A stretch of DNA of 64,000 bases from Vicinamibacterales bacterium (GTDB taxonomy: Bacteria; Acidobacteriota; Vicinamibacteria; Vicinamibacterales; 2-12-FULL-66-21), in NCBI GenBank assembly GCA_035495555.1, contig DATJFQ010000042.1, positions 75,893-139,892 of the forward strand, written 5' to 3'. The notes under the pieces were generated by a model. It worked only from the letters and a program-made list of their open reading frames with translations. It made no database searches and was not told where the DNA came from. Made by a program: the position numbers and the translations under genes. The stretch's first letter is position 1, and each line of letters starts with the position of its first letter. Shown piece by piece: positions 23,658 through 62,658 of the stretch.

Positions 23658-23719
23658 GCAACTGCCAACTACCAACGACGCAAGGAACCTTGCGTAGGCA
23701 ATTGTGGAGTTGGCAATTG
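23658..23719. repeat. CCAA/TTGG low-complexity dyad element with a central perfect palindrome
   Basis: gcaactgccaactaccaacg / acgcaaggaaccttgcgt / aggcaattgtggagttggcaattg. Confidence 0.75.
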
Positions 23720-25072
23720 TCACTGAGACGCGTTCTTCTCTCGATCGCCTTCCTGGCCGGCCTCGCGGTGCACCTCGTCACGTTGACGATGCCCGGGACC
23801 GACGATGTGATGGTCTGGAAGACGTGGAGCTATGGCGCCGCGACCGACCTCACGTCGATGTACGGCGTGGGCGGGACGCCCCCGCACCGCGGTGTCGTCA
23901 AGTGGCACACCAGAAGCACCACCGTCGATTACCCTCCCGGTACGTTGTACCTCCTTGGAATCGTTGGACGGGCATACCGAGCAACCTCGCCATCGTTCGA
24001 TGACTCCGCCGCGCTGACAGCCACGCTCAAGCTGTTCACGCTCGCCTTCGATGCCGCGACAGCGATCTTCCTCTGGGCGCTGGCGCGGCGGTATGTCGAC
24101 GGGCCAGCCGCTGCCGCGGCCGCGCTTGGGTACTGGGTGAATCCGGCGACGCTCCTTGACGGCTCAGTGCTTGGTTATCTGGATCCCTGGATGGCTGCCC
24201 CCGCGGTTGCTGCCCTCCTTGCCGCCGATGCGGGAATGTCGCTCGTCGCAGGGGCGCTGCTGGCGGCGGCCGTGCTGATCAAAGCACAAGCAATCTTCGT
24301 CGCGCCCGTCGTCGCACTCCTGCTCGTTCAGGCGTCGGGACGCCCGTGGCGGAGCGCACTGCTCGGGGTCCTCGGGTTCGGAGTCATCGCGGCCGGCGCA
24401 CTCTGGCCATTTGCGTCACGCGGCGCGCTCCCCAACGTTGCGCAGGGCGTCACCGCGCTGCTGCATCACGACATGCTGTCGGGCACCGCGGCCAATGTGT
24501 GGTGGCTCCTCACGTGGGTGCTGCGCGCAGCCTATGCGGTCCACGACCTCGGGCGCTGGGCAGCCTGGACGATGACGGTGAAAATTCTCGCGATTTCGAG
24601 GGTGGTGGCGCTGGGGTATCCGAATCCGCGGCCGGTCGCGCTCGCGCTGGTGCTGCTCGCGAGCGCCTGGGCCCTTTTCCGCGCGCACGGTGCGGCGAGC
24701 CGCGGGGCCTCGTCTGCCGTCCTCGTCGCCGCCGGCGCATTCGCGGTGCACGCGTACTTCACGCTTGGCGTCCAGGTGCATGAGAACCATCTGTTCCTGG
24801 CGGTTCCACTGCTCGCCGTCTGCGCGGTTGTGCTGCCCGGGTACCGCGGCGTCCTGCTGAGCGTCAGCGCGGTCGCCGCGCTGAATCCATTTCTGTTCTA
24901 CGGCGTGGGCCGCGGTTTTCCGCTTCCGTCCCGGCACTGGACGGTCGTCGATACGACCGTCATCCTTGCGGCATTCAACGTCGTCGCGCTCTGGTGGCAC
25001 GCGATGACGCTCAGCGACACCTGCGATCGAGCCTCGCGCGCGGCGAGTGCGGCCGGCTATTTGTGGAAGTAA
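23690..25072 (+). CDS. Polytopic membrane protein, GT-C-like (ALG6/8- or GT87/DUF2029-like) putative glycosyltransferase. The start is uncertain (TTG 23690 or TTG 23717).
   Basis: VDYPPGTLYLLG loop motif and about 10 or more TM segments. The first 9 codons of the track ORF lie inside an intergenic dyad repeat. Confidence 0.45.
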   Translation: MRRQLWSWQLSLRRVLLSIAFLAGLAVHLVTLTMPGTDDVMVWKTWSYGAATDLTSMYGVGGTPPHRGVVKWHTRSTTVDYPPGTLYLLGIVGRAYRATSPSFDDSAALTATLKLFTLAFDAATAIFLWALARRYVDGPAAAAAALGYWVNPATLLDGSVLGYLDPWMAAPAVAALLAADAGMSLVAGALLAAAVLIKAQAIFVAPVVALLLVQASGRPWRSALLGVLGFGVIAAGALWPFASRGALPNVAQGVTALLHHDMLSGTAANVWWLLTWVLRAAYAVHDLGRWAAWTMTVKILAISRVVALGYPNPRPVALALVLLASAWALFRAHGAASRGASSAVLVAAGAFAVHAYFTLGVQVHENHLFLAVPLLAVCAVVLPGYRGVLLSVSAVAALNPFLFYGVGRGFPLPSRHWTVVDTTVILAAFNVVALWWHAMTLSDTCDRASRAASAAGYLWK

Positions 25073-27575: not shown

Positions 27576-28637
27576 ATGCCGTGCCCACGCCTTGCTGGCG
27601 CCCTCGCGCTGGCGGGTTTGTGGGCGTTCAGCCCATCCGGGCCGGATGCCGCGAACGGGCGGTCGGACGCCGTCATCCCCGTTGAAACGCTTCGCGCCAC
27701 GGCTGCGCTCCCGGCGCACATCGCGGATGCGTTCGAATCACCGCGCAACTTCGAGCAGACCGATGCGGGCGAGTACTTCGTCTTCGACCGCCGCGGACAC
27801 GCGGTCTATACGGTCTCCGGCGACACGGCGCGCAAGATCATCGAGATCGGGGCGGAGCCCGGCAGGATTCTCGACCCGTCCGCGTTCGACATGGATCCGC
27901 GCGACGGCACGTTCGTCGTCGCCGACGCGCCGAACCAGCGGGAACGGATCCAAGTCTTCACCGCCGCCGGCAGCCGTCTTTCCGGGTTCACGCTTCCTGG
28001 CCGTGAACTGCCACGGATCACCTTCGACACCTTCGTGCTGAACGGCGTCGGTACCCTGCAGTTCACCGGCAATCGACTCCTCCTCAACCAGCCTGAGCGC
28101 AGCGCGCTCATCACCGAAATGATGATCGACGGGACTCCCGTGCGCACGTTCGGCAGACTGCGCCCGACGGGACACGAAGGAGATCCCGGCGTTCACACGG
28201 CGTTCAATTCGGGATTTCCGCTCGTCGATCCGGCAGGCGGTTATTACTTCGTCTTCGCTGCGGGCCCGCCGATGTTCCGGAAATACGACGCGACGGGCGA
28301 ACTGCTCTTCGAGCGTCACATCGAAGGACCGGAGATCGACGAGTACCTGCGGGCGCTCCCGACGACCTGGACGCGCCAGAAACAGCCCGACGGCACGTTG
28401 ATTCCGCTCGTCAACCCCGCGGTGCGGGCCGCCGGCGTCGATCGCCAGGGCCGCCTGTGGGTGTCACTCATCCAGCCGATGACGTATGTGTACGACCGGA
28501 CGGGAGACAAGATTCACACCGTGCAGTTCCGGGGCGCCGACATCATCGCGCCGAACAGCCTTTTTTTCACCAGGGACGGCAGGGTGCTTGTGACGCCGGG
28601 ATGTTACGAATTTTCGATCAAGAGCGTGAATCCCTAA
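27576..28637 (+). CDS. Secreted beta-propeller-like (NHL-like) protein of unknown function
   Basis: ATG lies 2 nt after the E1 stop. Signal peptide MPCPRLAGALALAGLWAFS. Repeated YFVFD/FVVAD/YYFVFA strand motifs. Confidence 0.5.
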   Translation: MPCPRLAGALALAGLWAFSPSGPDAANGRSDAVIPVETLRATAALPAHIADAFESPRNFEQTDAGEYFVFDRRGHAVYTVSGDTARKIIEIGAEPGRILDPSAFDMDPRDGTFVVADAPNQRERIQVFTAAGSRLSGFTLPGRELPRITFDTFVLNGVGTLQFTGNRLLLNQPERSALITEMMIDGTPVRTFGRLRPTGHEGDPGVHTAFNSGFPLVDPAGGYYFVFAAGPPMFRKYDATGELLFERHIEGPEIDEYLRALPTTWTRQKQPDGTLIPLVNPAVRAAGVDRQGRLWVSLIQPMTYVYDRTGDKIHTVQFRGADIIAPNSLFFTRDGRVLVTPGCYEFSIKSVNP

Positions 28638-28971: not shown

Positions 28972-29376
28972 CTACAACAGTTTTCCCACTGCAAGATCGA
29001 GATTGAGTTCCGCCGGATCGATGTCGAACTGCTGCGCGAGATCCGTGATTGTCTCCTGCAGCTTCATCAGGGCCATGCCGACGTTCTCGGTTTCCTCGTC
29101 CGTGAGCGTCTGATTCTCCATCCGGCGAATCGCCTGCCGCTCGAGAATCTGGCGAATCAGATCGACGAGCGTCAGCACCAGTTTCATCACCGAACGGCGG
29201 ACGTCTTCCGGGTCCGCGTTCCATCTGGGCGGACCGTGTGACGCGGCCTGGGCGATCTGTTGTCGAATCGCGTCGATCTCACGCTCGGCGCTGACAACGG
29301 CGCGCGGGCGTGTGCGCTTGACCGGTGTATGTCGGCGACCGGCAGGCTGTCTGGCGCTCGGCTTTTTACGCGTCAC
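28972..29376 (-). CDS. gvpK: Gas vesicle protein GvpK
   Basis: KLVLTLVDLIRQILERQAIRRMENQTLTDEETENVGMALMKLQE matches the GvpK family. GTG at 29376 forms a GTGA overlap with the upstream stop. The alternative GTG at 29421 would add 15 aa. Confidence 0.85.
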   Translation of the reverse strand: MTRKKPSARQPAGRRHTPVKRTRPRAVVSAEREIDAIRQQIAQAASHGPPRWNADPEDVRRSVMKLVLTLVDLIRQILERQAIRRMENQTLTDEETENVGMALMKLQETITDLAQQFDIDPAELNLDLAVGKLL

Positions 29377-30023
29377 AACAGTTCCGGCGCGAACGCGTAC
29401 GGCGCGAAAGGGCCGGACCACGTCAGCCCTGGCGCGTGGGTCCGCACGTCGGCGGCAGCCGACGCGTACGCGCCGGCGCGCACGCGATCGACGAGATGGT
29501 ACAGCGCTGCGGGCACGATTGTCGTCGCCTCAGCAAAGCGCTCTTCGGCCGCGAGGTTCGCCAGACGTCGGACACGGCGGAACGACGAGGGCGCCGGCGG
29601 GTGCGCTGCGCGAGCGGCGCGCCGCAGATAGTCGGTGCCTGAACGCGTCCGCGCCGCTTGGGCGCGGGCGCGGGCGACGGGCTCCGCCCCCGCACTGCGC
29701 CATGTGAACTGCACGCGTCCCCGGACACGATCGAAGGCCTCGCGCAGTTCCTCGCGGCGCTCGACGAACGACGTCTCCAGGTCGGACGAACTGAGCAGCG
29801 TCCCGAAGCGCACCGGAAGAATGGCTGGAACGAGCGCGGCGAGGCGCTCGACGATACGTTCGTGGGCCTGCAGCGTTCCGAAGTCGAAAGGAGGCACATC
29901 CGCGCGCCGTTCGACCACCGCGAATCCTCCATCGATCCGCCGGACGGCGAGCGGACCGCTGAGGCCGCGTCCCGGTTTCGGGGGCGGCGCGTCGACGACC
30001 GCGAACACGTACCACGCCATCAC
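29373..30023 (-). CDS. Gas vesicle protein, GvpF/GvpL family (third copy)
   Basis: WYVFAVVD...AHERIVERLAALVPAILPVRFGTLLSS...RGRVQFTW matches the GvpL_GvpF pattern. Confidence 0.8.
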   Translation of the reverse strand: MMAWYVFAVVDAPPPKPGRGLSGPLAVRRIDGGFAVVERRADVPPFDFGTLQAHERIVERLAALVPAILPVRFGTLLSSSDLETSFVERREELREAFDRVRGRVQFTWRSAGAEPVARARAQAARTRSGTDYLRRAARAAHPPAPSSFRRVRRLANLAAEERFAEATTIVPAALYHLVDRVRAGAYASAAADVRTHAPGLTWSGPFAPYAFAPELL

Positions 30024-30394
30024 CGTGAGCGGAGCGGCAACACGCGATCCGCGGCGCAGAGCAGGGCGGACAGGCGCAGGTACACAAGATCGACGTTCGC
30101 GAGCGCCAGGATCACTTCCGCATTGAGCACGACGCCTTTGCTGAGCAGGTTATCCACGATGTCGAGAAGCGTTGCGTCGTCTGAATCGATGATGCGGCCC
30201 GCTTGACGCCTCGCGGACGCACCCGTGCGCGGACCCGGCTTGCGGCTGGACGGCGGACGCCGCCGAGGCGCAGACGGCTTCAGCGCCGGCCGGGCACGCC
30301 GGCCGCCGACGGTTGTATGCCGCGGTCGCGGTCCCACGGTGCTTCGGAGGGCAGCGCGCGGTGGACGCGGGCGGCCTTTACGTCTTTTCGCCAT
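30020..30394 (-). CDS. GvpA/J/M-family small gas vesicle protein (GvpM-like) with a roughly 70-aa basic N-terminal extension
   Basis: ATLLDIVDNLLSKGVVLNAEVILALANVDLVYLRLSALL core. The N-terminus MAKRRKGRPRPPRAALRS... is rich in R/P/K. Confidence 0.8.
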   Translation of the reverse strand: MAKRRKGRPRPPRAALRSTVGPRPRHTTVGGRRARPALKPSAPRRRPPSSRKPGPRTGASARRQAGRIIDSDDATLLDIVDNLLSKGVVLNAEVILALANVDLVYLRLSALLCAADRVLPLRSR

Positions 30395-31184
30395 CGTTCC
30401 CGATGAAATTGTAGGCCGGCCACGGTCCGGTCAGCGTCATCCTGGCCCCCGCGGCCGCGCAGCGCGCCGCCTCTTTCCGCGCTGCCGCCTTGAACCGCGC
30501 GCGCGAGGAACTCGGGACGAGAAACGCGGCATCGAGAAGCGGCGGTGTGGCGCCCTCATCGCGGCGTTCGGGCCGTTGCCGGGCGGCGCGAGTGATTGCC
30601 GCCAGCGATTCATACGCCTCTTCCGCGGCCGCCGCGGTTCGGAGGCGGAAATCGTGCTGCGCATCCCGGACAGCCTTGCGCGACGCGAGGAAAGCGGACC
30701 CCGTCAGGGGCGCTGACGTCCGCGCGCGTCGCACCGCCACCGACTGGACACCCGGTTCCGCGAACACCCTGATCCCCCACTCCTCACATCCGGCGATACG
30801 CCGCACCGCGCGGCGGATGTCTTCGCGCTCGCGCAGCAATTCTTCACGCGCGCTCTCGACGGACGAGAAGATTGTCAGCAGTTTCATGGGAATCACCGTC
30901 GATCCGCGGCGACGCGTGAAGTATTCGACGACCGCCTCGTGGCCGACCGCGATTGCAGACACCCACTCCAGGTCGCGCAATCCGGCATTCACCGCGTGCT
31001 CTCCGTACATCGCGATGGGCACCCCCGCGGCGATGAACCACAGCTTTCCCGTGAGCAGCACCGGCTCCGGCCGTGCAGCGCCGGGGATACCGGCGGGCAC
31101 GCCGCCGAGCGGCGGCCGCGAGGGCGACGCGACGACACAGTAGACGTACGTCGCGTTCACGGTGCTCAATTGACGGCGCGCCAT
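30378..31184 (-). CDS. Gas vesicle protein, GvpF/GvpL family (second copy)
   Basis: Start at MARRQLSTVNATYVYCVVAS. HEAVVEYFTRRRGSTVIPMKLLTIFSS...EEWGIRVF. The 407-aa track ORF is over-extended into the ArsA-like gene. Confidence 0.8.
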   Translation of the reverse strand: MARRQLSTVNATYVYCVVASPSRPPLGGVPAGIPGAARPEPVLLTGKLWFIAAGVPIAMYGEHAVNAGLRDLEWVSAIAVGHEAVVEYFTRRRGSTVIPMKLLTIFSSVESAREELLREREDIRRAVRRIAGCEEWGIRVFAEPGVQSVAVRRARTSAPLTGSAFLASRKAVRDAQHDFRLRTAAAAEEAYESLAAITRAARQRPERRDEGATPPLLDAAFLVPSSSRARFKAAARKEAARCAAAGARMTLTGPWPAYNFIGNDGEKT

Positions 31185-33061
31185 CGTGATCTCCACGCCT
31201 GCAGCACGTCGACGCCATGAGGCGGGGGCAGGGCGGATGGAGTGACGATGATAGCGTAAGGCCCGCGGTCCGCCAGTTGCGCGCGGAGGGAGCCGAGTTC
31301 GCGGCGCTGTCTCCCCTCGATCGAACGACAGCGGGGGCACGAGCCGGCGCCGAACGCGTTCACGATCACCGCGCGGACAGCCACACCAAGGGCGTCGAGC
31401 GACCGTTGAAGCGCCAGCGTTTCCTCGCGCGGCACCGCTGCGGCGCGGGTGACGATGACGAAGGCGGTTTGGTTCCTGTCGCGAACGATCGTGTCGAGCG
31501 CGCGCAGCCGCTGCGACAGATCGACAAGGAGCTGCGCGAACGCACCAGGGCGCACGATCTCGCGATACTTCAGGAGAATGGCCATCAAGGCCTGCGTCCA
31601 CTCGCGAAGGATTGCCGGTGTCTCGAGCAGCCGCAGCGCGTGGCCCGTCGGCGCCGTGTCGGTGACGATCGTGCGGTACGAACCGCGTCCGTTCAGCAGT
31701 TCTGCGACCTCCGCAATGGCGATCACTTCGTCGAGACCGGGCGGTGTGAATTCGATGAGTTCGCGGAGGGCGCTCCGGTCGGGGGTCGGGTCGAGCGTCG
31801 ACCGCGTCAGGCCGTCGAACATCGCGTCAACGGCGCCCGTGTAGCGGGCGCGAAACTGCTGCAGGCCGCGAGCGGCATCGATTTCGCGCACGTCGAGATT
31901 CGGAAGGCCCCCGGCCAACGGCGCTGCCGAATCGCTTACGCGCACGCCGAGCACGTCGCCGAGCGAGTGCGCGGGGTCGGTAGACAGGAGCAGAAACGAT
32001 TCGTTCGGACTCGCCCGTGCGAGATCGACCGCCAGCGCGGCGCCGCACGTCGTTTTCCCCACACCCCCCTTCCCGCTCACGAGCAGCCACCGCGCATCGA
32101 AGATCGACTTGCCAACAGCAGTCGTTCGAATGCCGTGGGCAATGGCTCCATACAGCCGCCGGCGAAGCGGTGACGGGCGCGTGACCTGTTGCGCCCGCGA
32201 ACAGGTGGATGCAAGCGACCGGAGCGCGGCGGCATTACGAGGTTCCGTCTCGGATTCCGCGACCGTTCTGACGCGGATGGCCGGAAAGCATGCGGCGATC
32301 GGTGCCAGCGCGCGCGCCTCGAAGCGGCGGCGCGCCGCATCCCACTCGCAGCCGCCGCGAGGCGTCGCGCGGTTCACGATGAGCGTTCGTACGCGAATGC
32401 GGCTGGCGGCGAGCGCGGTGAGCGCGTCGGCCGTCTCTTCCAGCGCCATTGGCTCCGGAAGCGTCACCCACACGAACTCGGATTGCCTCTCGTCTCGCAG
32501 GCGGGTCGTCAGCAGCGTCGAATCCTCGGCGAGCGACGCAATCAACCGGTCCGCCGCGTCCTCCCGATAGCGCCCCGTGAGCGCCCGGACCACACCCCGG
32601 TGGTGCAACTGCAGGCCGTCCAGCACCTCCGCCATACGGGCGGCGAGCACCGGCATCGCGAGGAGCCGCAGCGTGTGGCCAGTCGGCGCCGTGTCCACCA
32701 CGACTCGTTCGTAGCGTGATTCCGAGAGACGCACGATCTCGAGCAGCGCCGCGACTTCGTCGATTCCCGGGAGCGAGAGCGCCAGCAGCCGGTGGACATC
32801 GTCCTCGTCGAGGTACGTCCCGCGCACCGCGATGGCTGCGAGGAGATCCTCGCGCGGTGCCAGCCAGGCCCGGAATGCGGCCCTCGCATCGATCGCGCGC
32901 ACGTCCAGCCGCGCCGGACGGCCGGAAAATCCAAAGCTCCGACGGACGGAGGCCGCGGGGTCAGTGGAAACGAGCAGCGTCCGGCAGTGGTGGGCGGAGC
33001 GGAACGCGATGGCTGCTGCGCAGGTGGTCTTGCCGACCCCGCCTTTGCCGCCCACGAGCAC
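31166..33061 (-). CDS. Tandem-duplicated ArsA/Get3-type P-loop ATPase
   Basis: Two halves, each with a deviant Walker A GKGGVGKTT(C) and the DTAPTGH(T/A)LRLL signature. There is a CPRC pair near the C-terminus. GTG start 11 nt after the gvpG stop, and the 3-prime end overlaps the next gvpF/L by 19 nt. Confidence 0.85.
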   Translation of the reverse strand: MLVGGKGGVGKTTCAAAIAFRSAHHCRTLLVSTDPAASVRRSFGFSGRPARLDVRAIDARAAFRAWLAPREDLLAAIAVRGTYLDEDDVHRLLALSLPGIDEVAALLEIVRLSESRYERVVVDTAPTGHTLRLLAMPVLAARMAEVLDGLQLHHRGVVRALTGRYREDAADRLIASLAEDSTLLTTRLRDERQSEFVWVTLPEPMALEETADALTALAASRIRVRTLIVNRATPRGGCEWDAARRRFEARALAPIAACFPAIRVRTVAESETEPRNAAALRSLASTCSRAQQVTRPSPLRRRLYGAIAHGIRTTAVGKSIFDARWLLVSGKGGVGKTTCGAALAVDLARASPNESFLLLSTDPAHSLGDVLGVRVSDSAAPLAGGLPNLDVREIDAARGLQQFRARYTGAVDAMFDGLTRSTLDPTPDRSALRELIEFTPPGLDEVIAIAEVAELLNGRGSYRTIVTDTAPTGHALRLLETPAILREWTQALMAILLKYREIVRPGAFAQLLVDLSQRLRALDTIVRDRNQTAFVIVTRAAAVPREETLALQRSLDALGVAVRAVIVNAFGAGSCPRCRSIEGRQRRELGSLRAQLADRGPYAIIVTPSALPPPHGVDVLQAWRSRWRAVN

Positions 33062-33072
33062 GAGCGGCGCGT

Positions 33073-33372
33073 TCAGTGCTCGTCGCCCTCGAACGTGGCT
33101 TCGATGCCGGTGATGCGCATGTCGGACGAAGACGCGATGGCGGCTTCGCCGCCCCGCTGCCGTTCCCGAATTTCCCGGATACGCGCGAGGATCTCTGCTT
33201 CGAGCGCGTCGAACTCGCCCTGTGTCATCTCCCCCAGCTCGACGCGCATTTGCGCCGCGAGGAGGTGCTCGTGCAGCGCCGACTCGTCGTTCATCTCCGT
33301 GTCGACGGCCGCAGCCACCTTGTCGAGCACGAAGCGAATCCCCGAAATCAGCAGACTGTCAACGATCAGCAT
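33073..33372 (-). CDS. gvpG: Gas vesicle protein GvpG
   Basis: MLIVDSLLISGIRFVLDKVAAAVDTEMNDESALHEHLLAAQMRVELGEMTQGEFDALEAEILARIREI matches the GvpG family pattern. Confidence 0.8.
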   Translation of the reverse strand: MLIVDSLLISGIRFVLDKVAAAVDTEMNDESALHEHLLAAQMRVELGEMTQGEFDALEAEILARIREIRERQRGGEAAIASSSDMRITGIEATFEGDEH

Positions 33373-33402: not shown

Positions 33403-34320
33403 TCAATGCGCCCGTTCGAGCTTCAGCCGGATGTTCACGAAATTGTACGGCGGCCACGGGCCGGTGTACTTGAACGTGAGCTTGTCGAACTGCTGTCCGA
33501 TCTGCTTGACGCGCGCGTCGAAGGCGCCTTCCGTCTCACGCGAGACGAGGAACGCGGCGTTCATGATCATCCGATCCCCGATAGGCTTGTTCGATCGCGA
33601 CGCCACCGACACGTTGCGGAGCGCGTTGAAGATGTCTGCCACGTATCGTTCGGAACGCGACTGCAGGGCGGCGTCGATCAAGCGCCCGTACTGCATCCGC
33701 GCGAAATAGGTGGAGCCCTTCTGCGACGAGATCTCGGTTTTCAACCGCCGGATGTCTTCGTCGTCCTCTTCGATTTCGCGGATGATCTGATCGCGGTCCC
33801 AGAGCACTTTCAGGCCGAACTCGAACTTTTCCTGCATCTTGTTCAGCACGTCGCTGAACGCGTCGTACGCCGAGCGCAGCAGCTCCATGATGTCGTCGTC
33901 GGTCTTGAACACGGTGCCGAACGACATCGGGATGACCGTGTGCTTCTGCATGACGGTCTCGTTCACGCGCTGGTGCGCCAGCACGTTCTCGCGCGTCGGA
34001 TCCTGAATCACGATCGGCGTGTTCGATACGACGGCCCCGATGTCGCGATAGTGCACCGTGTGCACGTCGGCGGGCTCGGGGCCGAGTCCCAGCGGGCCGA
34101 AGCTCAGAGGCTGCTCCGATCGGATGATGCAGTAGACATACTTGCCTTCCGGCCGGTCCTCACGCCTGGTCGTCTGCGGGACCCGCACGCGTTCGAGCTT
34201 GCCCCGGCCGGCGTCCTGGCGGGCGATGCTGGCGCGCTCGAGCGGCGGCTTTCGCGCCGGCGGTTCCGGCTTGCGGGGCGAGGTCTTCGATTTCGACGCT
34301 TTCTTTGCCGCTTTTGCCAT
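33403..34320 (-). CDS. gvpF: Gas vesicle protein GvpF/GvpL family (first copy) with a roughly 60-aa Lys/Pro-rich N-terminal extension
   Basis: KYVYCIIRSEQ...IGAVVSNTP...AHQRVNETVMQKHTVIPMSFGTVFKTDDD...FEFGLKV...YTGPWPPYNF. Confidence 0.85.
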   Translation of the reverse strand: MAKAAKKASKSKTSPRKPEPPARKPPLERASIARQDAGRGKLERVRVPQTTRREDRPEGKYVYCIIRSEQPLSFGPLGLGPEPADVHTVHYRDIGAVVSNTPIVIQDPTRENVLAHQRVNETVMQKHTVIPMSFGTVFKTDDDIMELLRSAYDAFSDVLNKMQEKFEFGLKVLWDRDQIIREIEEDDEDIRRLKTEISSQKGSTYFARMQYGRLIDAALQSRSERYVADIFNALRNVSVASRSNKPIGDRMIMNAAFLVSRETEGAFDARVKQIGQQFDKLTFKYTGPWPPYNFVNIRLKLERAH

Positions 34321-34332
34321 ACGGTCTGAGCC

Positions 34333-34767
34333 TCAGGATCGCTTCCGGGTGCCGCGGGACGCCCGTCCGTCGGCCCCCGTCGGCTGCCGATCGAGCAGCC
34401 GCCGGATCTCTGCCACCAAGGCGTCCGGCAGGCACGGCTTGGTCACGAACGCATCACAACCGGCCTGCCTCGCGCCTTCGGCGTGTCCGGCGAGCGCATG
34501 GCCGGTCAACGCGACGACGGGGATCTTCCGGGTCCGTTCATCACTCTTGAGGCGCCGTGTCGCCTCCCACCCGTCCATGCGGGGGAGCGCGAGGTCCATG
34601 AGGATGATGTCGGGCATCAGGCGCTGCGCCTTCTCGATGGCCTCGATGCCGTTGGTCGCTTCCGCGACCTCGTACCCGGAGAACTGCAGGTACGCCGCGT
34701 ACATCTCACGTGCATCCTGATAGTCCTCCACGACGAGCACCAGGGGCTGGTCGCGCCGGCTCTTCAT
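34333..34767 (-). CDS. Single-domain (CheY-like) response regulator with no output domain
   Basis: LVLVVEDYQD...DIILMDLALPRMDGWE...PVVALTGH...FVTKP. Its ATG overlaps the kinase stop (ATGA). Confidence 0.85.
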   Translation of the reverse strand: MKSRRDQPLVLVVEDYQDAREMYAAYLQFSGYEVAEATNGIEAIEKAQRLMPDIILMDLALPRMDGWEATRRLKSDERTRKIPVVALTGHALAGHAEGARQAGCDAFVTKPCLPDALVAEIRRLLDRQPTGADGRASRGTRKRS

Positions 34768-36896
34768 CGCCGCCTCGGGCGCGCGGGCAGCCGCAGTGTA
34801 AACGTCGATCCTTCTCCCTGTGTACTGGTCAAGTCGATCGTGCCTCCGAGCATCTGTGACAATCTCCGGCAAATCGAGAGACCAAGACCCGTGCCGCCAT
34901 AGCCGCGCGTGGGTGAGCTGTCGAGCTGACGGAAGTCCTCGAAGACCTTGGCCTGATCTTCCTTCGCAATGCCGACACCCGTATCTCGCACGGAGATCGA
35001 CATCTGCTTGGCGCGGCGCTCGAATGCCGCCTGGATGGTGACCGATCCCGCCGGCGTGAACTTCAAGGCATTGCTGAGCAGGTTCAGCACGATCTGCTTG
35101 ACCTTCTGGCGGTCGCTCCGGAGTTTCGGCAGCGGTCCTTTGGCCTTCGACGTGACGGCGAGATTGCTGCGGCGGATGATCGGCTCGAGCTCCGCCATCA
35201 CCTCCGCGATCAAATCCCCCACAGCGAACGAGGTCACGTTCAGCGGCATCCGGCCGGCTTCGATCCGTGTGATGTCGAGGATGTCGTTGATCAGGGCGAG
35301 CAGGTGCCGCGAGTTCGAGTCAATCCGCGTCAGGCTCTTGCGCTGCGGCTCGGTCACCTGTCCGGTCACGTTGTTGAGCAGCATGTGCGTGTAGCCGAGG
35401 ATCGCGTTCAGCGGCGTCCGGAACTCGTGCGACATGTTGGCGAGGAACTGCGATTTCAGCGCGGACGCCTGCTCGAGCTCGATGTGCTGCCGCCGCAGCA
35501 GCTCGTTCTGTTCGGCGAGTTCGGCCGTCGCTTCCTGCACTTTCCGTTCGAGCTGTTCCGATGCGTGCTTCAACTGCTCGTACAGCTTTCCCTTCTCGAT
35601 CGCCTCCGTGAGATCGTGCAGGATCGTCACGACCCACATCAGTTCGCCCTGTTCCGACAGGATCGTGCCCGCCAGCGCTTCGACCGGCAGCGGACGACCT
35701 GTGACGGGGTCGGCCAGCTGGATCTCACCGCGATAGCGCTGCTCTCCCGAGCGCGTCAGCACGTTGGACACGAACGAGGTCAGGTTTGCGCCGTTCGCGC
35801 GCACGCGCCGCAGCGCGGCTTCCATCTCCGTCGCCGGCGACGGGCTGAACAGCCGTTCCGCCGGTGTATTCATCAACACGATGTCGCCTTCCTGATCCGT
35901 CACGAGGATCGGGTCGGCAACCGAGTCGATGATCAGATCCAGCCGGTGGCGCTCGTCGCGCACTTCCGCCTGAGCGACCCGCAGCGTCCGATAGCTCTCT
36001 TCGATTTCTTCCTTCGCGCGCGCCAGGTCCGTCACGTTGCGGAGGATCGATACGACGAACGTCCCCTGCCGCTCGTCCTTCGCGCGGGAGCTGAGCAGCT
36101 CGAACAGCAGATCGGACCCTTCGAGCGGGTCCACCAGCAGCAGCTCGCGGCGCGCGAGCTCCGACATCGTGACGGCGCTCGTGGACAACGCCGCAGAGAA
36201 CAACATGTTGTTGAGCGCGACGGCCCGGCGCCAGCCCTCGCTCGACTCTTCAGGGGCGGCAAACAGCTTCTCCGCATGGCTGTTCGCGATGATCAGTTTG
36301 CCTTCCGTGTCGGTGAGCAGAATCGGGTCGGTGACCGCATTGATGATGCTGTAGAGCAGCATCCGCTCCTGGCCGAATCGCGTCTCCGCCAGCAGTTGTC
36401 GGCTGAGCAGCCTCGAAACCTGTTTTCCGAGCGTGCGCGCCAGCCACAGCGTGTCCGGATCGATCTGCGGGGACGCCGTGCTGGCAAGGAGGAGCCCCTG
36501 CGCCGTTTCACGGGTGTCGGCCCGCAGCGGGATCGCGTGAAACGCGCGCGCCTCGATGGGCGCTCGCAGATGGGGCGGCAGGGTGGAGATGAAGACCGGC
36601 TCCGGACTCGAGAGCGCCTGGACGAGCGGGTGCTTCCCATCGTCCCGGCTCAGCGCGAAGTCCATGATCGCGGCGCTCGAAACGCCGTGCTCCGCGACGA
36701 GCAGCATCTCGTTCGAGAGCGCCTCGACGACGAGCACGACGGCCTGCTCCACGGGCGCGTGAGCGACGACCCAGTCCACGGCCCGCCGCGCGGACTCCTG
36801 GATGTCCATGCTCGTCAGCAGAAATTCGACGAGCGCGAGCTTCGGTTCCGAATCCAGCGACGACACGGACGCCATCTGCGCCGCCACGCGCGACAC
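34764..36896 (-). CDS. Cytoplasmic GAF/PAS-PAS sensor histidine kinase
   Basis: H-box SHEFRTPLNAILGY, N/G boxes LLSNALKFT and GTGLGLSICRRL, and two PAS-like segments (VTDPILLTDTEGKLIIAN, VADPILVTDQEGDIVLMN). No obvious TM segment. GTG start 6 nt after the gvpA stop. Confidence 0.85.
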   Translation of the reverse strand: MSRVAAQMASVSSLDSEPKLALVEFLLTSMDIQESARRAVDWVVAHAPVEQAVVLVVEALSNEMLLVAEHGVSSAAIMDFALSRDDGKHPLVQALSSPEPVFISTLPPHLRAPIEARAFHAIPLRADTRETAQGLLLASTASPQIDPDTLWLARTLGKQVSRLLSRQLLAETRFGQERMLLYSIINAVTDPILLTDTEGKLIIANSHAEKLFAAPEESSEGWRRAVALNNMLFSAALSTSAVTMSELARRELLLVDPLEGSDLLFELLSSRAKDERQGTFVVSILRNVTDLARAKEEIEESYRTLRVAQAEVRDERHRLDLIIDSVADPILVTDQEGDIVLMNTPAERLFSPSPATEMEAALRRVRANGANLTSFVSNVLTRSGEQRYRGEIQLADPVTGRPLPVEALAGTILSEQGELMWVVTILHDLTEAIEKGKLYEQLKHASEQLERKVQEATAELAEQNELLRRQHIELEQASALKSQFLANMSHEFRTPLNAILGYTHMLLNNVTGQVTEPQRKSLTRIDSNSRHLLALINDILDITRIEAGRMPLNVTSFAVGDLIAEVMAELEPIIRRSNLAVTSKAKGPLPKLRSDRQKVKQIVLNLLSNALKFTPAGSVTIQAAFERRAKQMSISVRDTGVGIAKEDQAKVFEDFRQLDSSPTRGYGGTGLGLSICRRLSQMLGGTIDLTSTQGEGSTFTLRLPARPRRR

Positions 36897-36902
36897 GGGT
36901 GT

Positions 36903-37223
36903 TTACCCCTCGACGTTTCGGCGGCGCCCGCTGCGTCCTTTGGACGCGGCGAGTTCGGCACGCAGTGCCGCGTTCTCGGCAATGACGTCCTGGTGGGAGG
37001 GCAGTTCGGCCGCGGGACGCGACACCGGGGCGACCTGGCCGACCGCTTCGGAATACTTCAGATAGGTGTCGATTGACGCCACCACGACGCGCGCCTCGAC
37101 GGTGATCAGGTCGATGCCCACCAGCGACACGCGAACCCACGCGTCGATGACGATGCCTTTGTCGAGCACGCGGTCGAGGACGTCGATGAGACTCGTGCCG
37201 CCTGCAGCTCGTTCAACTGCCAT
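36903..37223 (-). CDS. gvpA: Major gas vesicle structural protein GvpA (with C-terminal extension)
   Basis: [52 protein letters not shown] is near-canonical GvpA. A GGGAGAG Shine-Dalgarno lies 7 nt upstream of the ATG. Confidence 0.95.
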
Positions 37224-37247: not shown

Positions 37248-37583
37248 TCAACGCCGGCGGCGGGTCGCGCCCCGGGGGACTGAAAGTGCATCCACACGTG
37301 CCTGCAACTCCTGCAGCTGGGCTCGCAACTGGTCGTGTTCGGCGATGCCGGCGCGCGTCGCGCCGGGCGAGAGATCACGATCGTACCGCCACCAGTCGAG
37401 ACCGATCTCCTGAGCCTTGTCGAGCGAGCAGACGAGAAGGCGGATACGAATCGTCAGCAGCTCGACTTCGGCCAGGGACACCTTGATGTCGCCGGCGATG
37501 ACGAGCCCCTTGTCGAGCACGCGGTCCAGGACGTCGACCAGTCCTGTCCCGCGCTGGTGGGACCCTGGGAGCTCGAGAGGCAT
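37248..37583 (-). CDS. gvpJ: GvpJ-like small gas vesicle protein (GvpA/J family)
   Basis: [52 protein letters not shown]. Start at MPLELPG. The track ORF extending to 37721 runs into gnd. Confidence 0.85.
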   Translation of the reverse strand: MPLELPGSHQRGTGLVDVLDRVLDKGLVIAGDIKVSLAEVELLTIRIRLLVCSLDKAQEIGLDWWRYDRDLSPGATRAGIAEHDQLRAQLQELQARVDALSVPRGATRRRR

Positions 37584-37629: not shown

Positions 37630-39066
37630 CTAGCGCGGGTCAGGCGCAGCCTGCAAACCCCAGTCGGCGTGGATGAAGCCGGGCCGCTCGATCCGTTCGA
37701 ACGTGTGGGCGCCAAACGCATCGCGCTGCGCCTGCGTCAAGTTCTGGGGTAAGCGCGCCGTTCGATAACTGTCGAAGTAAGCGAGGCTCGCCGTCATGGC
37801 GGGAATCGGAATGCCTGCCGCTACCGCTGACGCGGCGATGCGGCGCCAGCCGGCCTGCGCGCCCTGCACCTGGCGCCCGAGGCGTTCGTCCATGAGGAGA
37901 TTCACGAGCGCAGGGTCGCGCGTGAACGCAGCCCGGACGTCGTCGAGTACGCGCGCGCGGATGATGCACCCGCCTGTCCAGATTCGCGCCATCTCCGACA
38001 GGTTCACGTGCCAGTCGTAGTGCGCAGAGCCGGCCGCGATGAGCGCCATGCCCTGCGCGTAGCTGCAGATGCGCGACGCGTGCAGCGCATCGGCGACCGA
38101 GTCGACGATCAGTTCGCGGTCCGATGCGGTGAATGCGTCGCTCGTGACGGGTCCATCGAAGCGCGCCGATGCGGATACGCGCTGCTCCTTCATACTCGAG
38201 AGGACGCGCGCGTCGAGTGCGGCGGCAATCGTCGGAATGGGAACGCCGAGGTCGAGCGCGACCTGCGCCGTCCAGAGGCCGGTCCCCTTCTGGCCTGCCT
38301 TGTCCTGAATCACGTCGACGAGTGGCGTGCCCGTCCGGGCATCGATCACGTGACAGACGTGCGCCGTCAATTCGACGAGGAACGACTCGAGGACGCCGGT
38401 GTTCCAGCGCGCGAAGATGTCTCCGATGTCCGGCGTCGACAGCCCGAGCCCGCGATGCAGCACGTCGTAGGCTTCGGCGATGAGTTGCATGTCGCCGTAC
38501 TCGATGCCGTTGTGGACCATCTTCACGAAGTGGCCCGCGCCGTCGGGTCCGACGTGCGTCACGCACGCGCCGGCATCGGTCTTCGCGGCAATCGCCGTCA
38601 GCACATCCTCGATGCGGGCCCACGCGTCAGCGGACCCGCCGGGCATGAGCGACGGCCCGAACCGCGCCCCTTCTTCGCCGCCGGATACGCCGCACCCGAC
38701 GAAGTTCAGTCCCGCGGCCCGCATCTGCGCTTCGCGCCGGCGCGTGTCCTCGAAAAACGAGTTGCCGCCGTCGATGAGGATGTCGCCGCGTTCGAGCAGC
38801 GGTGTGAGCTGGTCAATCATCGAATCCACGGGCGCCCCCGCAGGAATCATCATCATCATGCGGCGCGGCCGCTCGAGTGACGACACGAGATCCTGCAGCG
38901 TCTTCGTGCCCGTGAATGTCGACCCGCGGTGGTCGGCGAGAAATCTGTCCGTCCAGTCCCCCTCGAGGTTCCAGACGGCCACGCTGAAGCCGTGCGATTC
39001 GATGTTGAGCGCCAGATTGCGCCCCATGGTGCCGAGGCCGATCATGCCGAAGCTGCTCACTGCCAT
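37630..39066 (-). CDS. gnd: 6-phosphogluconate dehydrogenase (decarboxylating)
   Basis: MAVSSFGMIGLGTMGRNLALN..., GGNSFF, GVSGGEEGAR and HFVKMVHNGIEYGDMQ. Confidence 0.95.
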   Translation of the reverse strand: MAVSSFGMIGLGTMGRNLALNIESHGFSVAVWNLEGDWTDRFLADHRGSTFTGTKTLQDLVSSLERPRRMMMMIPAGAPVDSMIDQLTPLLERGDILIDGGNSFFEDTRRREAQMRAAGLNFVGCGVSGGEEGARFGPSLMPGGSADAWARIEDVLTAIAAKTDAGACVTHVGPDGAGHFVKMVHNGIEYGDMQLIAEAYDVLHRGLGLSTPDIGDIFARWNTGVLESFLVELTAHVCHVIDARTGTPLVDVIQDKAGQKGTGLWTAQVALDLGVPIPTIAAALDARVLSSMKEQRVSASARFDGPVTSDAFTASDRELIVDSVADALHASRICSYAQGMALIAAGSAHYDWHVNLSEMARIWTGGCIIRARVLDDVRAAFTRDPALVNLLMDERLGRQVQGAQAGWRRIAASAVAAGIPIPAMTASLAYFDSYRTARLPQNLTQAQRDAFGAHTFERIERPGFIHADWGLQAAPDPR

Positions 39067-39980
39067 GCCGGAATCTCCAACGCCGCGGCGAGTGCGCGCT
39101 CGAACGCCAGATCCCGGGTCCGCACGCCGAGTTCCTCGCCGATGACGGCGGTCAACGTGCCCTCGCCGAGCGGTACCACCCGCGTCGATGCATCGCGCCC
39201 CGCGATCTCGGCGCGGAGACAGCCGCGGGTAGCGCGCCGCGCGATCGACACGTGATGGCCGTCCGCGTCGAGCTCCACGGAATCCAGCGGCGCGCGCTGG
39301 TCGCTGCTCCCCGACGGACGCAGATCGATCGTGACGTCCGTCCCCCAGTGCAGCGCCGACCGCAGCCAGCCGGCAAACAGCCGCGCGGCAAACGGATCCG
39401 CGCCCGCGATCGACAGCCGTGTCACCGGCACGCTGCGCACCTCGGGCAGGTCGAACAGGTGCGCGATCACCGACCGCCAGCGCGTGAGGCGCGTCCAGCG
39501 GAGATCCGTCACGGCGCTCTGCTCCACGATGGTATCGACGATCGACCACGCACTCGACGGGTCGAGGACGTCGATGATCAGCCGATCGGCCAGATGCGCG
39601 ATCTCCTGGAGCGACTCTGGCGCTCCTCCGCGCCACCACACGGCGGTCGGCAGGCTCGAGAGCCGCAGCGCGGCCACCGCGTTGTTGAGAAACTTGGGCG
39701 CGAGGCCCGCAATGCCGATCGCGTGCTCCGTGACGCGCGCCGTGGGCGTCGTCTCGCCTCCCTCGGAGATGAGAATCGCGCGGACGCCTTCGGCCTCGCT
39801 GAGGTGCGCCAGCGCGTCCGCAGCGTCGATCAGACGATCGTGTTCACCGACAACGACAACCGTCGCCGTCAGCGCCCGCGCCGGTCCGCCTTTGCGCCGG
39901 CGGCCGTCGCGGGCCAGCCGCGCCAGCGTTGCTTCGATGTCGGCAAACGGCACCTCGCGTCCGTTCGGCAGCAGTGTCAT
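39057..39980 (-). CDS. opcA: Glucose-6-phosphate dehydrogenase assembly protein OpcA-like
   Basis: Lies between zwf and gnd. LPTAVWWRG...DRLIIDV...DLRWTRLTRWR motifs are typical of OpcA. Confidence 0.7.
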   Translation of the reverse strand: MTLLPNGREVPFADIEATLARLARDGRRRKGGPARALTATVVVVGEHDRLIDAADALAHLSEAEGVRAILISEGGETTPTARVTEHAIGIAGLAPKFLNNAVAALRLSSLPTAVWWRGGAPESLQEIAHLADRLIIDVLDPSSAWSIVDTIVEQSAVTDLRWTRLTRWRSVIAHLFDLPEVRSVPVTRLSIAGADPFAARLFAGWLRSALHWGTDVTIDLRPSGSSDQRAPLDSVELDADGHHVSIARRATRGCLRAEIAGRDASTRVVPLGEGTLTAVIGEELGVRTRDLAFERALAAALEIPAWQ

Positions 39981-39991
39981 GTCAGGGGAAG

Positions 39992-41530
39992 TCACAGCGT
40001 CCTCCAACGGCGGCCGTCCGCCTGGATCAAGTGGTCGGCCTCGGGCGGTCCCCACTCGCCCGCCTCATACGTCGGGATCGACTCGAGGCCCGACGCTTCC
40101 CACATCTGGTGCACGGGCGTGATCAACGCCCACGAGTTCTCGACGAAATCGTGGCGCGCGAACAGCGTGGGGTCGCCGAGCAGCGCGTCGAGCAGCAGCG
40201 TCTCGTAGGCTTCCGGCACCGGCTTCCCGAAGGCGCTCCCGTAGCGGAAATTCATCATCACCGGCGCGAGCTGCATCCGGCTGCCCGGCAGTTTCGCCTC
40301 GAACCGCAGCGAGATCCCTTCGTCGGGCTGGACGTTCACGATCAGGAGGTTCGGCGCGATCGGAGTCGGGCTGACCCGTTTGAAGATGTGCAGCGGCGGA
40401 CGCCGGAACTGAATCGCGATTTCCGTCGTGCGTTTGGGCAGGCGCTTGCCGGTGCGGAGGAAGAAGGGAACGCCCGCCCAGCGCCAGCTATCGAGCTGCA
40501 GGCGCAGCGCGACGAATGTCTCGGTCACCGACGTCGGACTGACACCGTCCTCCTGCCGATACCCCGGCACTTCTTTGCCGTTCACCCAGCCCGCGGTGTA
40601 CTGCGCCCGAACGACGTTGTGCGCGCCGCCGTTCTCGCCGTTCTGGGGCACGAGCGGCTGAATGCTCAGCAGCGCGTCCAGCTTGCGATCCCGCACGTTC
40701 TCGGCCGAAAAGCGGATCGGGGGCTCCATCGCCACCAGTGTGAGGACCTGCATCAGATGGTTCTGTACCATGTCGCGCAGCGCACCCGCACCTTCGTAGT
40801 AGCCGGCGCGGCGTTCGACGCCGACGGTCTCCGCTGCGGTGATTTGCACATGATCGATATAGCGCCGGTTCCACACCGGCTCGAACATACCGTTGGCAAA
40901 CCTGAAGACGAGCAGGTTCTGTACCGTTTCCTTCCCGAGGTAGTGATCGATACGAAAGATCTGCGGCTCGTCGAGGTGCTGGTGGAGAACGGCGTTGAGA
41001 TCCCGCGCGGTCTTCAGGTCCGTACCGAACGGCTTCTCGACGATCACCCGCCGCCAGCCGGCCGGCGTACGCGGCTTCACGAGACCCGCCTCGCTTAACC
41101 GCTTCACGACATCCCCATAGACCGACGGCGGAATCGCAAAGTAGAACAGCACCCCGTCGGGCCAGCCCGGCTCCGAAATTTTCGCCGCGATCCGCGAGTA
41201 CAGCGCCGGATCATCCATCTCACCGCCGACGTAGAAGAGATCCGACGCGAGCGCGGTGGATACGTCGTCGGGTTGGGCGAGACCCGCGAACTGCTTCAGG
41301 CTGTCGTGGAAATGCGCGCGGAACGCGTCGTCAGTCCAGTCGGTACGCGCGACGCCAAGGACCTTGAACTGCGCCGGCAGCCGCTGGCCGCGCGCGAGTT
41401 GGTAGAGCGCCGGAAGCAGCTTGCGATTGGTGAGGTCGCCCGAGGCGCCGAAGATGACCAGAACCGTCGGTTCGGGCGTGGGCTCGATACGGAGCCCGTC
41501 GAGCAAGGGATTCGTCGCCGCAACGTCCAC
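39992..41530 (-). CDS. zwf: Glucose-6-phosphate 1-dehydrogenase
   Basis: VIFGASGDLTNRKLLPAL, RIDHYLGKE and EKPFG motifs. Confidence 0.95.
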   Translation of the reverse strand: MDVAATNPLLDGLRIEPTPEPTVLVIFGASGDLTNRKLLPALYQLARGQRLPAQFKVLGVARTDWTDDAFRAHFHDSLKQFAGLAQPDDVSTALASDLFYVGGEMDDPALYSRIAAKISEPGWPDGVLFYFAIPPSVYGDVVKRLSEAGLVKPRTPAGWRRVIVEKPFGTDLKTARDLNAVLHQHLDEPQIFRIDHYLGKETVQNLLVFRFANGMFEPVWNRRYIDHVQITAAETVGVERRAGYYEGAGALRDMVQNHLMQVLTLVAMEPPIRFSAENVRDRKLDALLSIQPLVPQNGENGGAHNVVRAQYTAGWVNGKEVPGYRQEDGVSPTSVTETFVALRLQLDSWRWAGVPFFLRTGKRLPKRTTEIAIQFRRPPLHIFKRVSPTPIAPNLLIVNVQPDEGISLRFEAKLPGSRMQLAPVMMNFRYGSAFGKPVPEAYETLLLDALLGDPTLFARHDFVENSWALITPVHQMWEASGLESIPTYEAGEWGPPEADHLIQADGRRWRTL

Positions 41531-61494: not shown

Positions 61495-62637
61495 TCAGAG
61501 CGCAGCGACGATCAACGTGGCATCGTCCTCGTATTTGCCGGCGTTGAACCGCTCGATGTCCGCCAGCATGGCTGCGAGCATCGCGTCGGCGTCGAGAGCC
61601 CGGTGACGCCCGGCGAGCTCGGCGACGCCGTCGTCGGTGAACTCCTCCCCGGCGGCGTTTCGGGATTCGCTGATGCCGTCGGTGTAGAACACGAGGCGAT
61701 CGTGCGGGGCCAGCACCAGCTCTCCCTGCTCATACGCGTTCTCGGGGAAGACGCCGAGAACGGTGCCGCCCGGCGACAAACGGTCCATCGAGCCGTCGGC
61801 CCGAATGAGCAGCGGCGGGTTGTGCCCGGCATTGGAGTAGGTCAGGCGCCGCGCCGCGACGTCGATGCGCGAGTAGCAGAAGGTCACGAACCGGCCGCTC
61901 GCCATGTTGCGGCACAGCAGCCGGTTCACGCTCGCGCACACCGAGGCCGGCGGGGTGCCATCCTGCGCGAAGGCGCGGACCGCCGCCTGCAGGTTCGACA
62001 TCAGCAGCGCCGCCGGCACGCCTTTGCCCGCCACGTCGGCAATCGACAGCCCGACGGCATGCTCGCCGAACGTGAGCACGTCGAAGCAGTCGCCGCCGAC
62101 GCCATTTGCCGGACGCCACGACGATGACAGCGTCAGGCCCGCGATGTGCGGCATTGCCGTCGGAAGGAGCCCGCGCTGAATCAGGCGAGCTTCTTCGAGC
62201 TCGCGCTGCTGTTTGGCGTCCCGGCGTTTCGACGCGCGCGCGTCTTCGATCTCGCGCTGAAGAATCTCCAGCAGCGCCTCGTCCTCCCACGGCTTCTGGA
62301 CGAAGCTCTTCGCGCCCCGGCGCATGGCTTCCACCGCCGTGTCGACACTGCCCCACCCGGTCATCACGACGATCGGCATGGCCGCGTCACACGCGCGAAC
62401 CTGCGGGATGAGTTCGAGGCCCTCACGTCCCGAGGTCGTGTCCCGGCTGTAGTTCAAGTCCATCAGCAGGAGATCGAAGCGTCCGGCGCGCAGACGTTCG
62501 AGGACGCCATCCGTCGAGTTGACGAACTCCGGCTCGTACCCTTCGCCCGTGAGGAGCCAGCGCAACGCCTCGAGGACGTCGGCCTGATCGTCTGCGACGA
62601 GGACGCGGGCTGAGGATTCCGGGCGGATAACGGGCAT
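61495..62637 (-). CDS. Response regulator with PP2C/SpoIIE-type phosphatase output
   Basis: Receiver (VLVADDQADVLE...LLLMDLNY...VVMTGW...QKP) followed by a PP2C-like region (VGGDCFDV..., FYTDGISE). ATG at 62637 is preferred. Confidence 0.8.
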   Translation of the reverse strand: MPVIRPESSARVLVADDQADVLEALRWLLTGEGYEPEFVNSTDGVLERLRAGRFDLLLMDLNYSRDTTSGREGLELIPQVRACDAAMPIVVMTGWGSVDTAVEAMRRGAKSFVQKPWEDEALLEILQREIEDARASKRRDAKQQRELEEARLIQRGLLPTAMPHIAGLTLSSSWRPANGVGGDCFDVLTFGEHAVGLSIADVAGKGVPAALLMSNLQAAVRAFAQDGTPPASVCASVNRLLCRNMASGRFVTFCYSRIDVAARRLTYSNAGHNPPLLIRADGSMDRLSPGGTVLGVFPENAYEQGELVLAPHDRLVFYTDGISESRNAAGEEFTDDGVAELAGRHRALDADAMLAAMLADIERFNAGKYEDDATLIVAAL

Positions 62638-62658
62638 GCTGTACATGCGCAGCACTGG

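Follow-up and report, generated by a model that had tools for sequence, protein, structure and literature searches.

The tandem ATPase and its family

The 64-kb stretch of DNA analysed here (64,000 nucleotides of contig DATJFQ010000042.1 from a Vicinamibacterales bacterium; hereafter the window) contains a gas-vesicle (gvp) operon in which the open reading frame 31166-33061, on the minus strand, encodes a 631-residue ATPase made of two homologous halves. We refer to this product as the tandem ATPase. Its gene and motifs are:

31166-33061, minus strand: tandem Get3/ArsA-family ATPase gene, 631 residues counted from the GTG; a CTG at 33076-33074 is a possible real start
33026-33049, minus strand: deviant Walker A of the N-half, GKGGVGKT, residues 5-12 (motif search)
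32675-32695, minus strand: switch II of the N-half, DTAPTGH, residues 123-129 (motif search)
32339-32350, minus strand: zinc-clasp position of the N-half, CEWD, residues 238-241 (alignment to the Get3 CxxC)
32051-32074, minus strand: deviant Walker A of the C-half, GKGGVGKT, residues 330-337 (motif search)
31640-31660, minus strand: switch II of the C-half, DTAPTGH, residues 468-474 (motif search)
31328-31339, minus strand: CPRC of the C-half, residues 575-578 (alignment to the Get3 zinc-clasp CxxC)

The two-halved architecture, with a P-loop and a DTAPTGH in each half and a C-terminal CPRC, had been recognized in the original prediction from the sequence, and aligning the halves against each other confirms it (36% identity, E=2e-31). 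Each half keeps Walker A, switch I (TDPA) and switch II (DTAPTGH), none of which varies among 54 homologues, and the two nucleotide sites look intact for catalysis. The CPRC is the sole CxxC of the protein, and its two cysteines are invariant in the same homologues. At the clasp position of the N-half, at least 90% of the family have CxWC, and the window protein and its closest relatives have CEWD, perhaps a Cys3Asp site or a clasp that is weakened.

Profile searches place the tandem ATPase in the TRC40/GET3/ArsA family (NCBIfam TIGR00345, 302 bits against a cutoff of 135) and in Pfam ArsA_ATPase (PF02374, 295 bits against a cutoff of 24.3), the latter matching in two stretches. By contrast, the ArsA equivalog model TIGR04291 yields 159 bits, below its cutoff of 650, and identity to plasmid arsA products is about 26%. 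We aligned the protein half by half with Klebsiella ArsA, a segment of C. thermophilum Get3 and distant homologues. Here, the positions of the ArsA cysteines C113 and C422 are taken in both halves by the Get3-type motif PG(I/L)DE, and different sequence stands in place of the C172 region, in agreement with the motif census, while all gvp-linked homologues show a CxxC in both halves that aligns to the zinc clasp of Get3. The spacing between DTAP and VxN after switch II amounts to 107 residues in the N-half and 100 in the C-half, compared with 93 in ArsA and about 114, counted by hand, in C. thermophilum Get3. Among solved structures, the best sequence match is Chlamydomonas ARSA1 (5zme, E=1.4e-58), with Get3 proteins next (1e-42 and below) and E. 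coli ArsA (1f48) at 9e-28. Because the ArsA equivalog score is so low, the metalloid cysteines are absent, PG(I/L)DE and CxxC are present and ARSA1 is the best match, we regard the tandem ATPase, on sequence grounds, as Get3-type and not as an arsenite pump. The likeness to Get3 pointed out in the original prediction is thereby upheld.

Automatic annotation names the product an 'arsenite-transporting ATPase', and its fold matches that of ArsA, as would be expected of a bona fide arsenite-efflux ATPase. Yet seeds for ArsR, ArsD, ArsB and ArsC from a real arsRDABC operon (L092) match nothing in the window, and neither ArsB nor ACR3 is found among its polytopic membrane proteins; the original prediction was thus right to see no ars genes here and to call an efflux role unsupported. 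Together with the missing C113, C172 and C422, the failure to reach the TIGR04291 cutoff and the separation of the clade from ars-linked ArsA described below, this leaves arsenite efflux effectively refuted.

Comparison with characterized relatives sharpens this picture. ARSA1 (5zme/5zmf) is likewise a fused, pseudo-dimeric Get3-type protein with PG(L/V)DE motifs, but it is eukaryotic, about 27-28% identical to the tandem ATPase, and serves tail-anchored proteins of the chloroplast outer envelope as clients. Yeast and mammalian Get3/TRC40 share the P-loop, switches I and II, PGIDE, the CxxC zinc clasp and a helical client-binding subdomain; they differ in being homodimers of single-domain subunits with a distinct α8 lid and a methionine-rich groove. 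We know of no bacterial counterparts of the Get3 partners Get1, Get2, Get4 and Get5. With ArsA of E. coli and Klebsiella, the tandem ATPase has the overall pseudo-dimer fold (template-modelling score of about 0.6-0.7) and the nucleotide-binding motifs in common, whereas these proteins possess C113, C172 and C422, lack CxxC, have a post-switch-II region of 93 residues and are linked to arsD/arsB. An AlphaFold2 model of the tandem ATPase (predicted local distance difference test 84, predicted template-modelling score 0.83) adopts the ArsA/ARSA1/Get3 fold. A fold search matched it to ArsA, ARSA1 and Get3 alike, and we therefore rejected fold as a means of discriminating ArsA from Get3.

We further compared the half-domains in a neighbour-joining tree, which is a distance tree only and of moderate support. 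The N and C halves of the gvp-type proteins cluster together (83/100) and those of ars-linked ArsA stand apart (78/100), a separation in keeping with the original prediction; the nearest outgroups are single-domain CxxC proteins and Get3. Since the gvp-type halves group with each other and apart from ArsA, an independent duplication is indicated, and the tree points to an origin of the tandem ATPase by its own internal duplication of a CxxC-bearing, Get3-like ancestor, not from ArsA.

The deviant Walker A and the SIMIBI superfamily are also shared with ParA and MinD, and there are weak Pfam matches to CbiA/ParA/AAA_31, as if the protein served to position gas vesicles, spacing or segregating them in the cell, and not to assist subunit assembly. 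The ParA-family models, however, remain far under their cutoff (50 bits against 180), and the Get3-specific PGxDE, CxxC and extended helical subdomain are conserved. Moreover, the two halves of the tandem ATPase are covalently joined into a pseudo-dimer with a predicted metal clasp, to which the ATP-driven monomer-dimer cycle of ParA and MinD would therefore be unavailable. Hence, we consider a positioning role distinctly unlikely.

The gvp operon and its conservation

The operon consists of 11 closely spaced genes on one strand, assigned by Pfam and NCBIfam profile matches and by the gene calls in identical contigs. Their order is gvpJ-like, gvpA, histidine kinase, response regulator, gvpF, gvpG, tandem ATPase, gvpL, gvpM/J-like, gvpF-like and gvpK. 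The genes around that of the tandem ATPase are:

37248-37583, minus strand: gvpJ-like gene of the GvpA family (profiles), 111 residues as called in identical contigs
36903-37223, minus strand: gvpA, major shell protein (Pfam; PRK09371, 113 bits)
34764-36896, minus strand: PAS-HisKA-HATPase histidine kinase inside the operon (domain matches)
34333-34767, minus strand: single-domain response regulator inside the operon (Pfam)
33403-34320, minus strand: gvpF (Pfam GvpL_GvpF, 258 bits)
33073-33372, minus strand: gvpG, directly upstream of the tandem ATPase gene (Pfam); its stop overlaps a conserved CTG of the ATPase frame
30378-31184, minus strand: gvpL/F-family gene overlapping the 3' end of the ATPase gene (Pfam; DNA read at the junction)
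30020-30394, minus strand: GvpM/J-like gene, start uncertain (profile matches)
29373-30023, minus strand: second GvpF/L-like gene (Pfam)
28972-29421, minus strand: gvpK (Pfam); called with 134 residues, 28972-29376, in identical contigs

All neighbours of the ATPase gene are thus gvp genes, the histidine kinase or the response regulator. Reading the DNA directly, we found the gvpG stop separated by 11 nucleotides from the GTG of the ATPase gene, and an overlap of 19 nucleotides between the end of the ATPase gene and the gvpL ATG at 31184, both as originally described; an alternative gvpL GTG at 31196 would extend the overlap to 31 nucleotides.

With the family alignment as query, we scanned metagenomes and obtained 80 loci at 22-47% identity; these were then searched with the Gvp proteins of the window and by motif census. 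Close relatives (52-100% identity; metagenome-assembled genomes of Vicinamibacterales and Acidobacteriota, and soil metagenomes) have the whole operon. Where tandem proteins carry PGxDE and CxxC in both halves (L001-L016 and L091), 17 of 17 loci are gvp-linked, as against none of about 17 where they carry the ArsA cysteine motif and lack CxxC; the clade thus co-occurs with gvp genes in the way the original prediction implied. Within the 17-locus class the order gvpF-gvpG-ATPase is kept wherever upstream sequence exists. Overall, this order persists between 100% and about 31% identity. Searches with the ArsR/D/B/C seeds revealed no ars genes in the gvp-linked loci, whereas 14 tandem loci without gvp linkage, which represent ars-linked controls, adjoin arsD, arsR or arsC. 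A single-domain CxxC relative (L024) also lies beside a large gvp cluster. Altogether, the gvp operon contains the tandem ATPase as an integral and conserved component.

This conservation also bears on the idea of a general insertion factor for tail-anchored membrane proteins, or a stress holdase, that sits among gvp genes by accident. Tandem CxxC Get3 homologues do exist outside gvp clusters, for instance in Myxococcus (PMC2963123, cluster 6; PMC6593721). Nevertheless, the position between gvpG and gvpL persists to about 31% identity with overlapping stops and starts, and every one of the 17 sampled loci is gvp-linked, which makes an incidental location very unlikely.

The original prediction knew of no described gvp-associated ArsA-family protein; this does not hold. 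Castillo and Saier (2010; PMC2963123) reported ArsA homologues of about 640 residues and two domains within gvp clusters from four phyla (Bacteroidetes/Chlorobi, Geobacter, cyanobacteria, Acidobacteria). They pointed out that neither the ArsA cysteines nor arsR is present, and suggested an energizing function at some stage of vesicle biogenesis. Our loci, an independent data set, reproduce the association. The tandem ATPase agrees with their clusters 4/6 in length, two-domain layout, location inside gvp clusters and absence of arsR and the ArsA cysteines, and their acidobacterial example has two L/F genes, J, K and M as neighbours, as in the window. We see no essential difference and count the tandem ATPase as a further member. 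Tandem Get3 homologues of unknown function, each chain with two Get3-like domains, a TRC40-insert and, except in those of cyanobacteria, CxxC, were described by Bodensohn et al. (2019; PMC6593721) from Myxococcales, other Proteobacteria and cyanobacteria; gas vesicles are not mentioned there. Our literature search found no paper pairing 'gas vesicle' with 'Get3', and the remaining papers on both ArsA and gas vesicles handle each apart. The gvp association has accordingly been known since 2010, and the tandem ATPase joins a bioinformatically known class. PMC2963123 mentions neither the Get3-type CxxC and PGxDE, nor the conserved adjacency to gvpG, nor the start-codon anomaly described below; a sharper Get3-type assignment, this adjacency and the anomaly are our modest additions.

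The histidine kinase and response regulator (34333-36896) are kept between gvpA and gvpF in all acidobacterial-type loci, and in L008 they are fused into one hybrid kinase of 859 residues. They are probably a dedicated signal input to vesicle formation.

Start of the ATPase and its junction with gvpG

The GTG from which the window protein is counted lies only three residues ahead of the first P-loop, leaving the real start uncertain. In L001/L094, L003, L004 and L095, at least four independent relatives, the ATPase frame is open for 77-141 codons without any ATG, GTG or TTG upstream of the first P-loop. In the window and in L093 there are only GTGs, 2-4 codons ahead of GKGG, and these valine codons vary synonymously among relatives. 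As no canonical start precedes the P-loop, gene callers truncate the protein, which is called at 556-589 residues in 9 of the 12 closest clusters. Over the first 25 codons from the gvpG stop to the P-loop, synonymous outnumber non-synonymous differences by 6:2 to 12:3, which shows purifying selection on the stretch, P-loop included.

The junction ...TTC GAG GGC GAC GAG CAC TGA is conserved in the window (33055-33076) and in L001, L003, L004, L093, L094 and L095. In it, a CTG in the ATPase frame overlaps the gvpG stop (CACTGA), always seven codons ahead of GGC GGC and with a GAGGG 10 nucleotides upstream. The simplest reading that this arrangement suggests is (re)initiation at CUG, coupled to termination of gvpG. 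A programmed -1 frameshift from gvpG into the ATPase frame is less likely, given that an X_XXY_YYZ slippery site is lacking; the long open -1 frame is not unusual, at one stop per 124 codons (P about 0.3-0.5).

One locus (L091:2601-4850, P0024) contains a GvpG-ATPase fusion of 749 residues, in which one G of GAGGGC is lost relative to the canonical 3' end of gvpG. In a search targeted at the junction, stand-alone GvpG proteins of 98-99 residues made up 118 of the 120 top matches, and one match was a chimera of 226 residues (P0188). Because of the single missing G and the prevalence of stand-alone GvpG, the fusion probably reflects an indel or a rare occurrence, and we rejected it as Rosetta-stone evidence.

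A possible role in gas-vesicle assembly

The original prediction proposed that the tandem ATPase replaces the AAA+ protein GvpN. In favour of such a substitute, which would energize shell growth in GvpN-less clusters, the tandem ATPase is the only nucleoside triphosphatase of the operon. GvpN seeds match nothing in the window, and the only G....GK[ST] P-loops in its long frames are the two of the tandem ATPase. Likewise, no GvpN or CDC48-type AAA+ gene was found in the window or within ±10 kb in any of the 14 acidobacterial-type loci. The absence of GvpN thus stands for the window and these surroundings; the replacement does not stand as a general idea. The tandem ATPase itself has no match to the GvpN profile (TIGR02640), and GvpN, although also an ATPase of gvp clusters, has an unrelated fold, AAA+ as opposed to a SIMIBI pseudo-dimer. 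In L012, L014, L016 and L024 the same ATPase type shares its cluster with a genuine GvpN (331-345 bits to TIGR02640, whose cutoff is 267), and gvpN accompanies the two-domain homologue in three phyla (Bacteroidetes/Chlorobi, Geobacter and cyanobacteria; PMC2963123), so that coexistence is found in many clusters. Conversely, the Streptomyces gvpOAFG-JLSK clusters lack gvpN and the tandem ATPase as well (PMC9501494), and in the present genome gvpN may be encoded elsewhere. Since the ATPase and a bona fide GvpN coexist in four distant clusters, the tandem ATPase is no general GvpN substitute. It may provide a lineage-specific compensation for GvpN in acidobacterial-type clusters; as an account of what the protein does, substitution for GvpN seems unlikely to us.

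CDC48-family double-AAA+ ATPases are encoded in distant gvp clusters (L011:5676-7823, L012:1361-3715 and L024:7189-9336; 867-946 bits against a cutoff of 803), and a further one (L022:1438-2847) was matched by phmmer only. The CDC48 gene of L024 and that of L022 are each immediately preceded by a single-domain Get3-type gene with CxxC.

With these data in mind, we lean, cautiously, towards the tandem ATPase being a dedicated gas-vesicle assembly factor, that is, a Get3-type pseudo-dimeric SIMIBI P-loop ATPase that arose by its own duplication and has a role distinct from that of GvpN. Its gene is translationally coupled to gvpG and gvpL and would share a transcript with them. A cysteine-rich metal clasp (CxxD + CxxC here, CxxC + CxxC in most relatives) would hold the two halves together; binding of ATP would close them, and the extended helices after switch II would then form a hydrophobic surface. 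This surface would shield an aggregation-prone segment of a Gvp client, either a member of the GvpA/J/M family or GvpG, and the client would come free at the GvpF/G/L/K nucleation complex once ATP is hydrolysed. The post-switch-II helices are 38-65% hydrophobic, and a hydrophobic face on them (W488/L492/M493/L496/Y499) is conserved among homologues.

It is plausible that the tandem ATPase acts as a chaperone or targeting factor of hydrophobic Gvp proteins. GvpA, GvpJ and GvpM aggregate without chaperones, and the main partners of GvpG are GvpL and GvpF (PMC9501494). Candidate clients are the GvpA/J/M family, the GvpM-like protein in particular for its tail-anchor-like C-terminus, and GvpG as the constant upstream neighbour. 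In the GvpM/J-like protein of the window, the most hydrophobic 19-residue segment comes after a basic tail and stops 12 residues before the C-terminus, and this GvpA-type domain at the extreme C-terminus has, judging by its sequence, a tail-anchor-like layout. The same protein has a long, basic, Arg/Pro-rich N-terminal extension, and gene callers give it lengths between 45 and 125 residues.

Several points weigh against an assembly role of this kind. By fold only, the AlphaFold2 model fits closed ArsA slightly better than Get3; it joins the two long post-switch-II helices by 6 residues, without a separate lid helix (α8, TRC40 insert), and the groove helices contain few methionines. GvpA-family shell proteins are rich in β-hairpins, unlike classic helical tail anchors. 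Our literature search yielded no experimental work on the gvp-linked tandem clade. Finally, the Anabaena and B. megaterium clusters in the review PMC9501494 have no such ATPase gene; therefore, the factor is not universally needed.

A more specific version of the assembly-factor reading ties the protein to GvpG, through CUG re-initiation at the CUGA overlap or an occasional GvpG-ATPase fusion, and has it hand a tail-anchor-like GvpM/J/A subunit to the GvpF/G/L complex, with GvpN dispensable in Acidobacteria. We regard this full combination as speculative and rather improbable.

Gas vesicles are being engineered into acoustic and magnetic resonance imaging reporter genes. Their very hydrophobic shell subunits have to be kept soluble and delivered to the shell as it grows. 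A conserved Get3-like ATPase in many gvp clusters, GvpN-less ones included, is a concrete candidate for the chaperone step and, if this proved true, would be the first case in which bacterial tandem Get3 homologues are assigned a function. In practical terms, our analysis contributes this sharper hypothesis and not the discovery of the gvp association, which dates from 2010.

Outside the operon, zwf, opcA and gnd of the oxidative pentose-phosphate pathway (37630-41530) lie directly upstream on the same strand, a neighbourhood that relatives with as little as about 52% identity still share (L006, L008, L009 and L093-L095). On the other side, a 353-residue protein without Pfam match (27576-28637) adjoins gvpK on the opposite strand, and relatives have a gene of similar size, again without Pfam match, at the same place. 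Further away, 23690-25072 encodes a 460-residue protein with 10 predicted transmembrane segments and no Pfam match, and at 61495-62655 a response-regulator receiver domain is fused to a SpoIIE/PP2C phosphatase domain.

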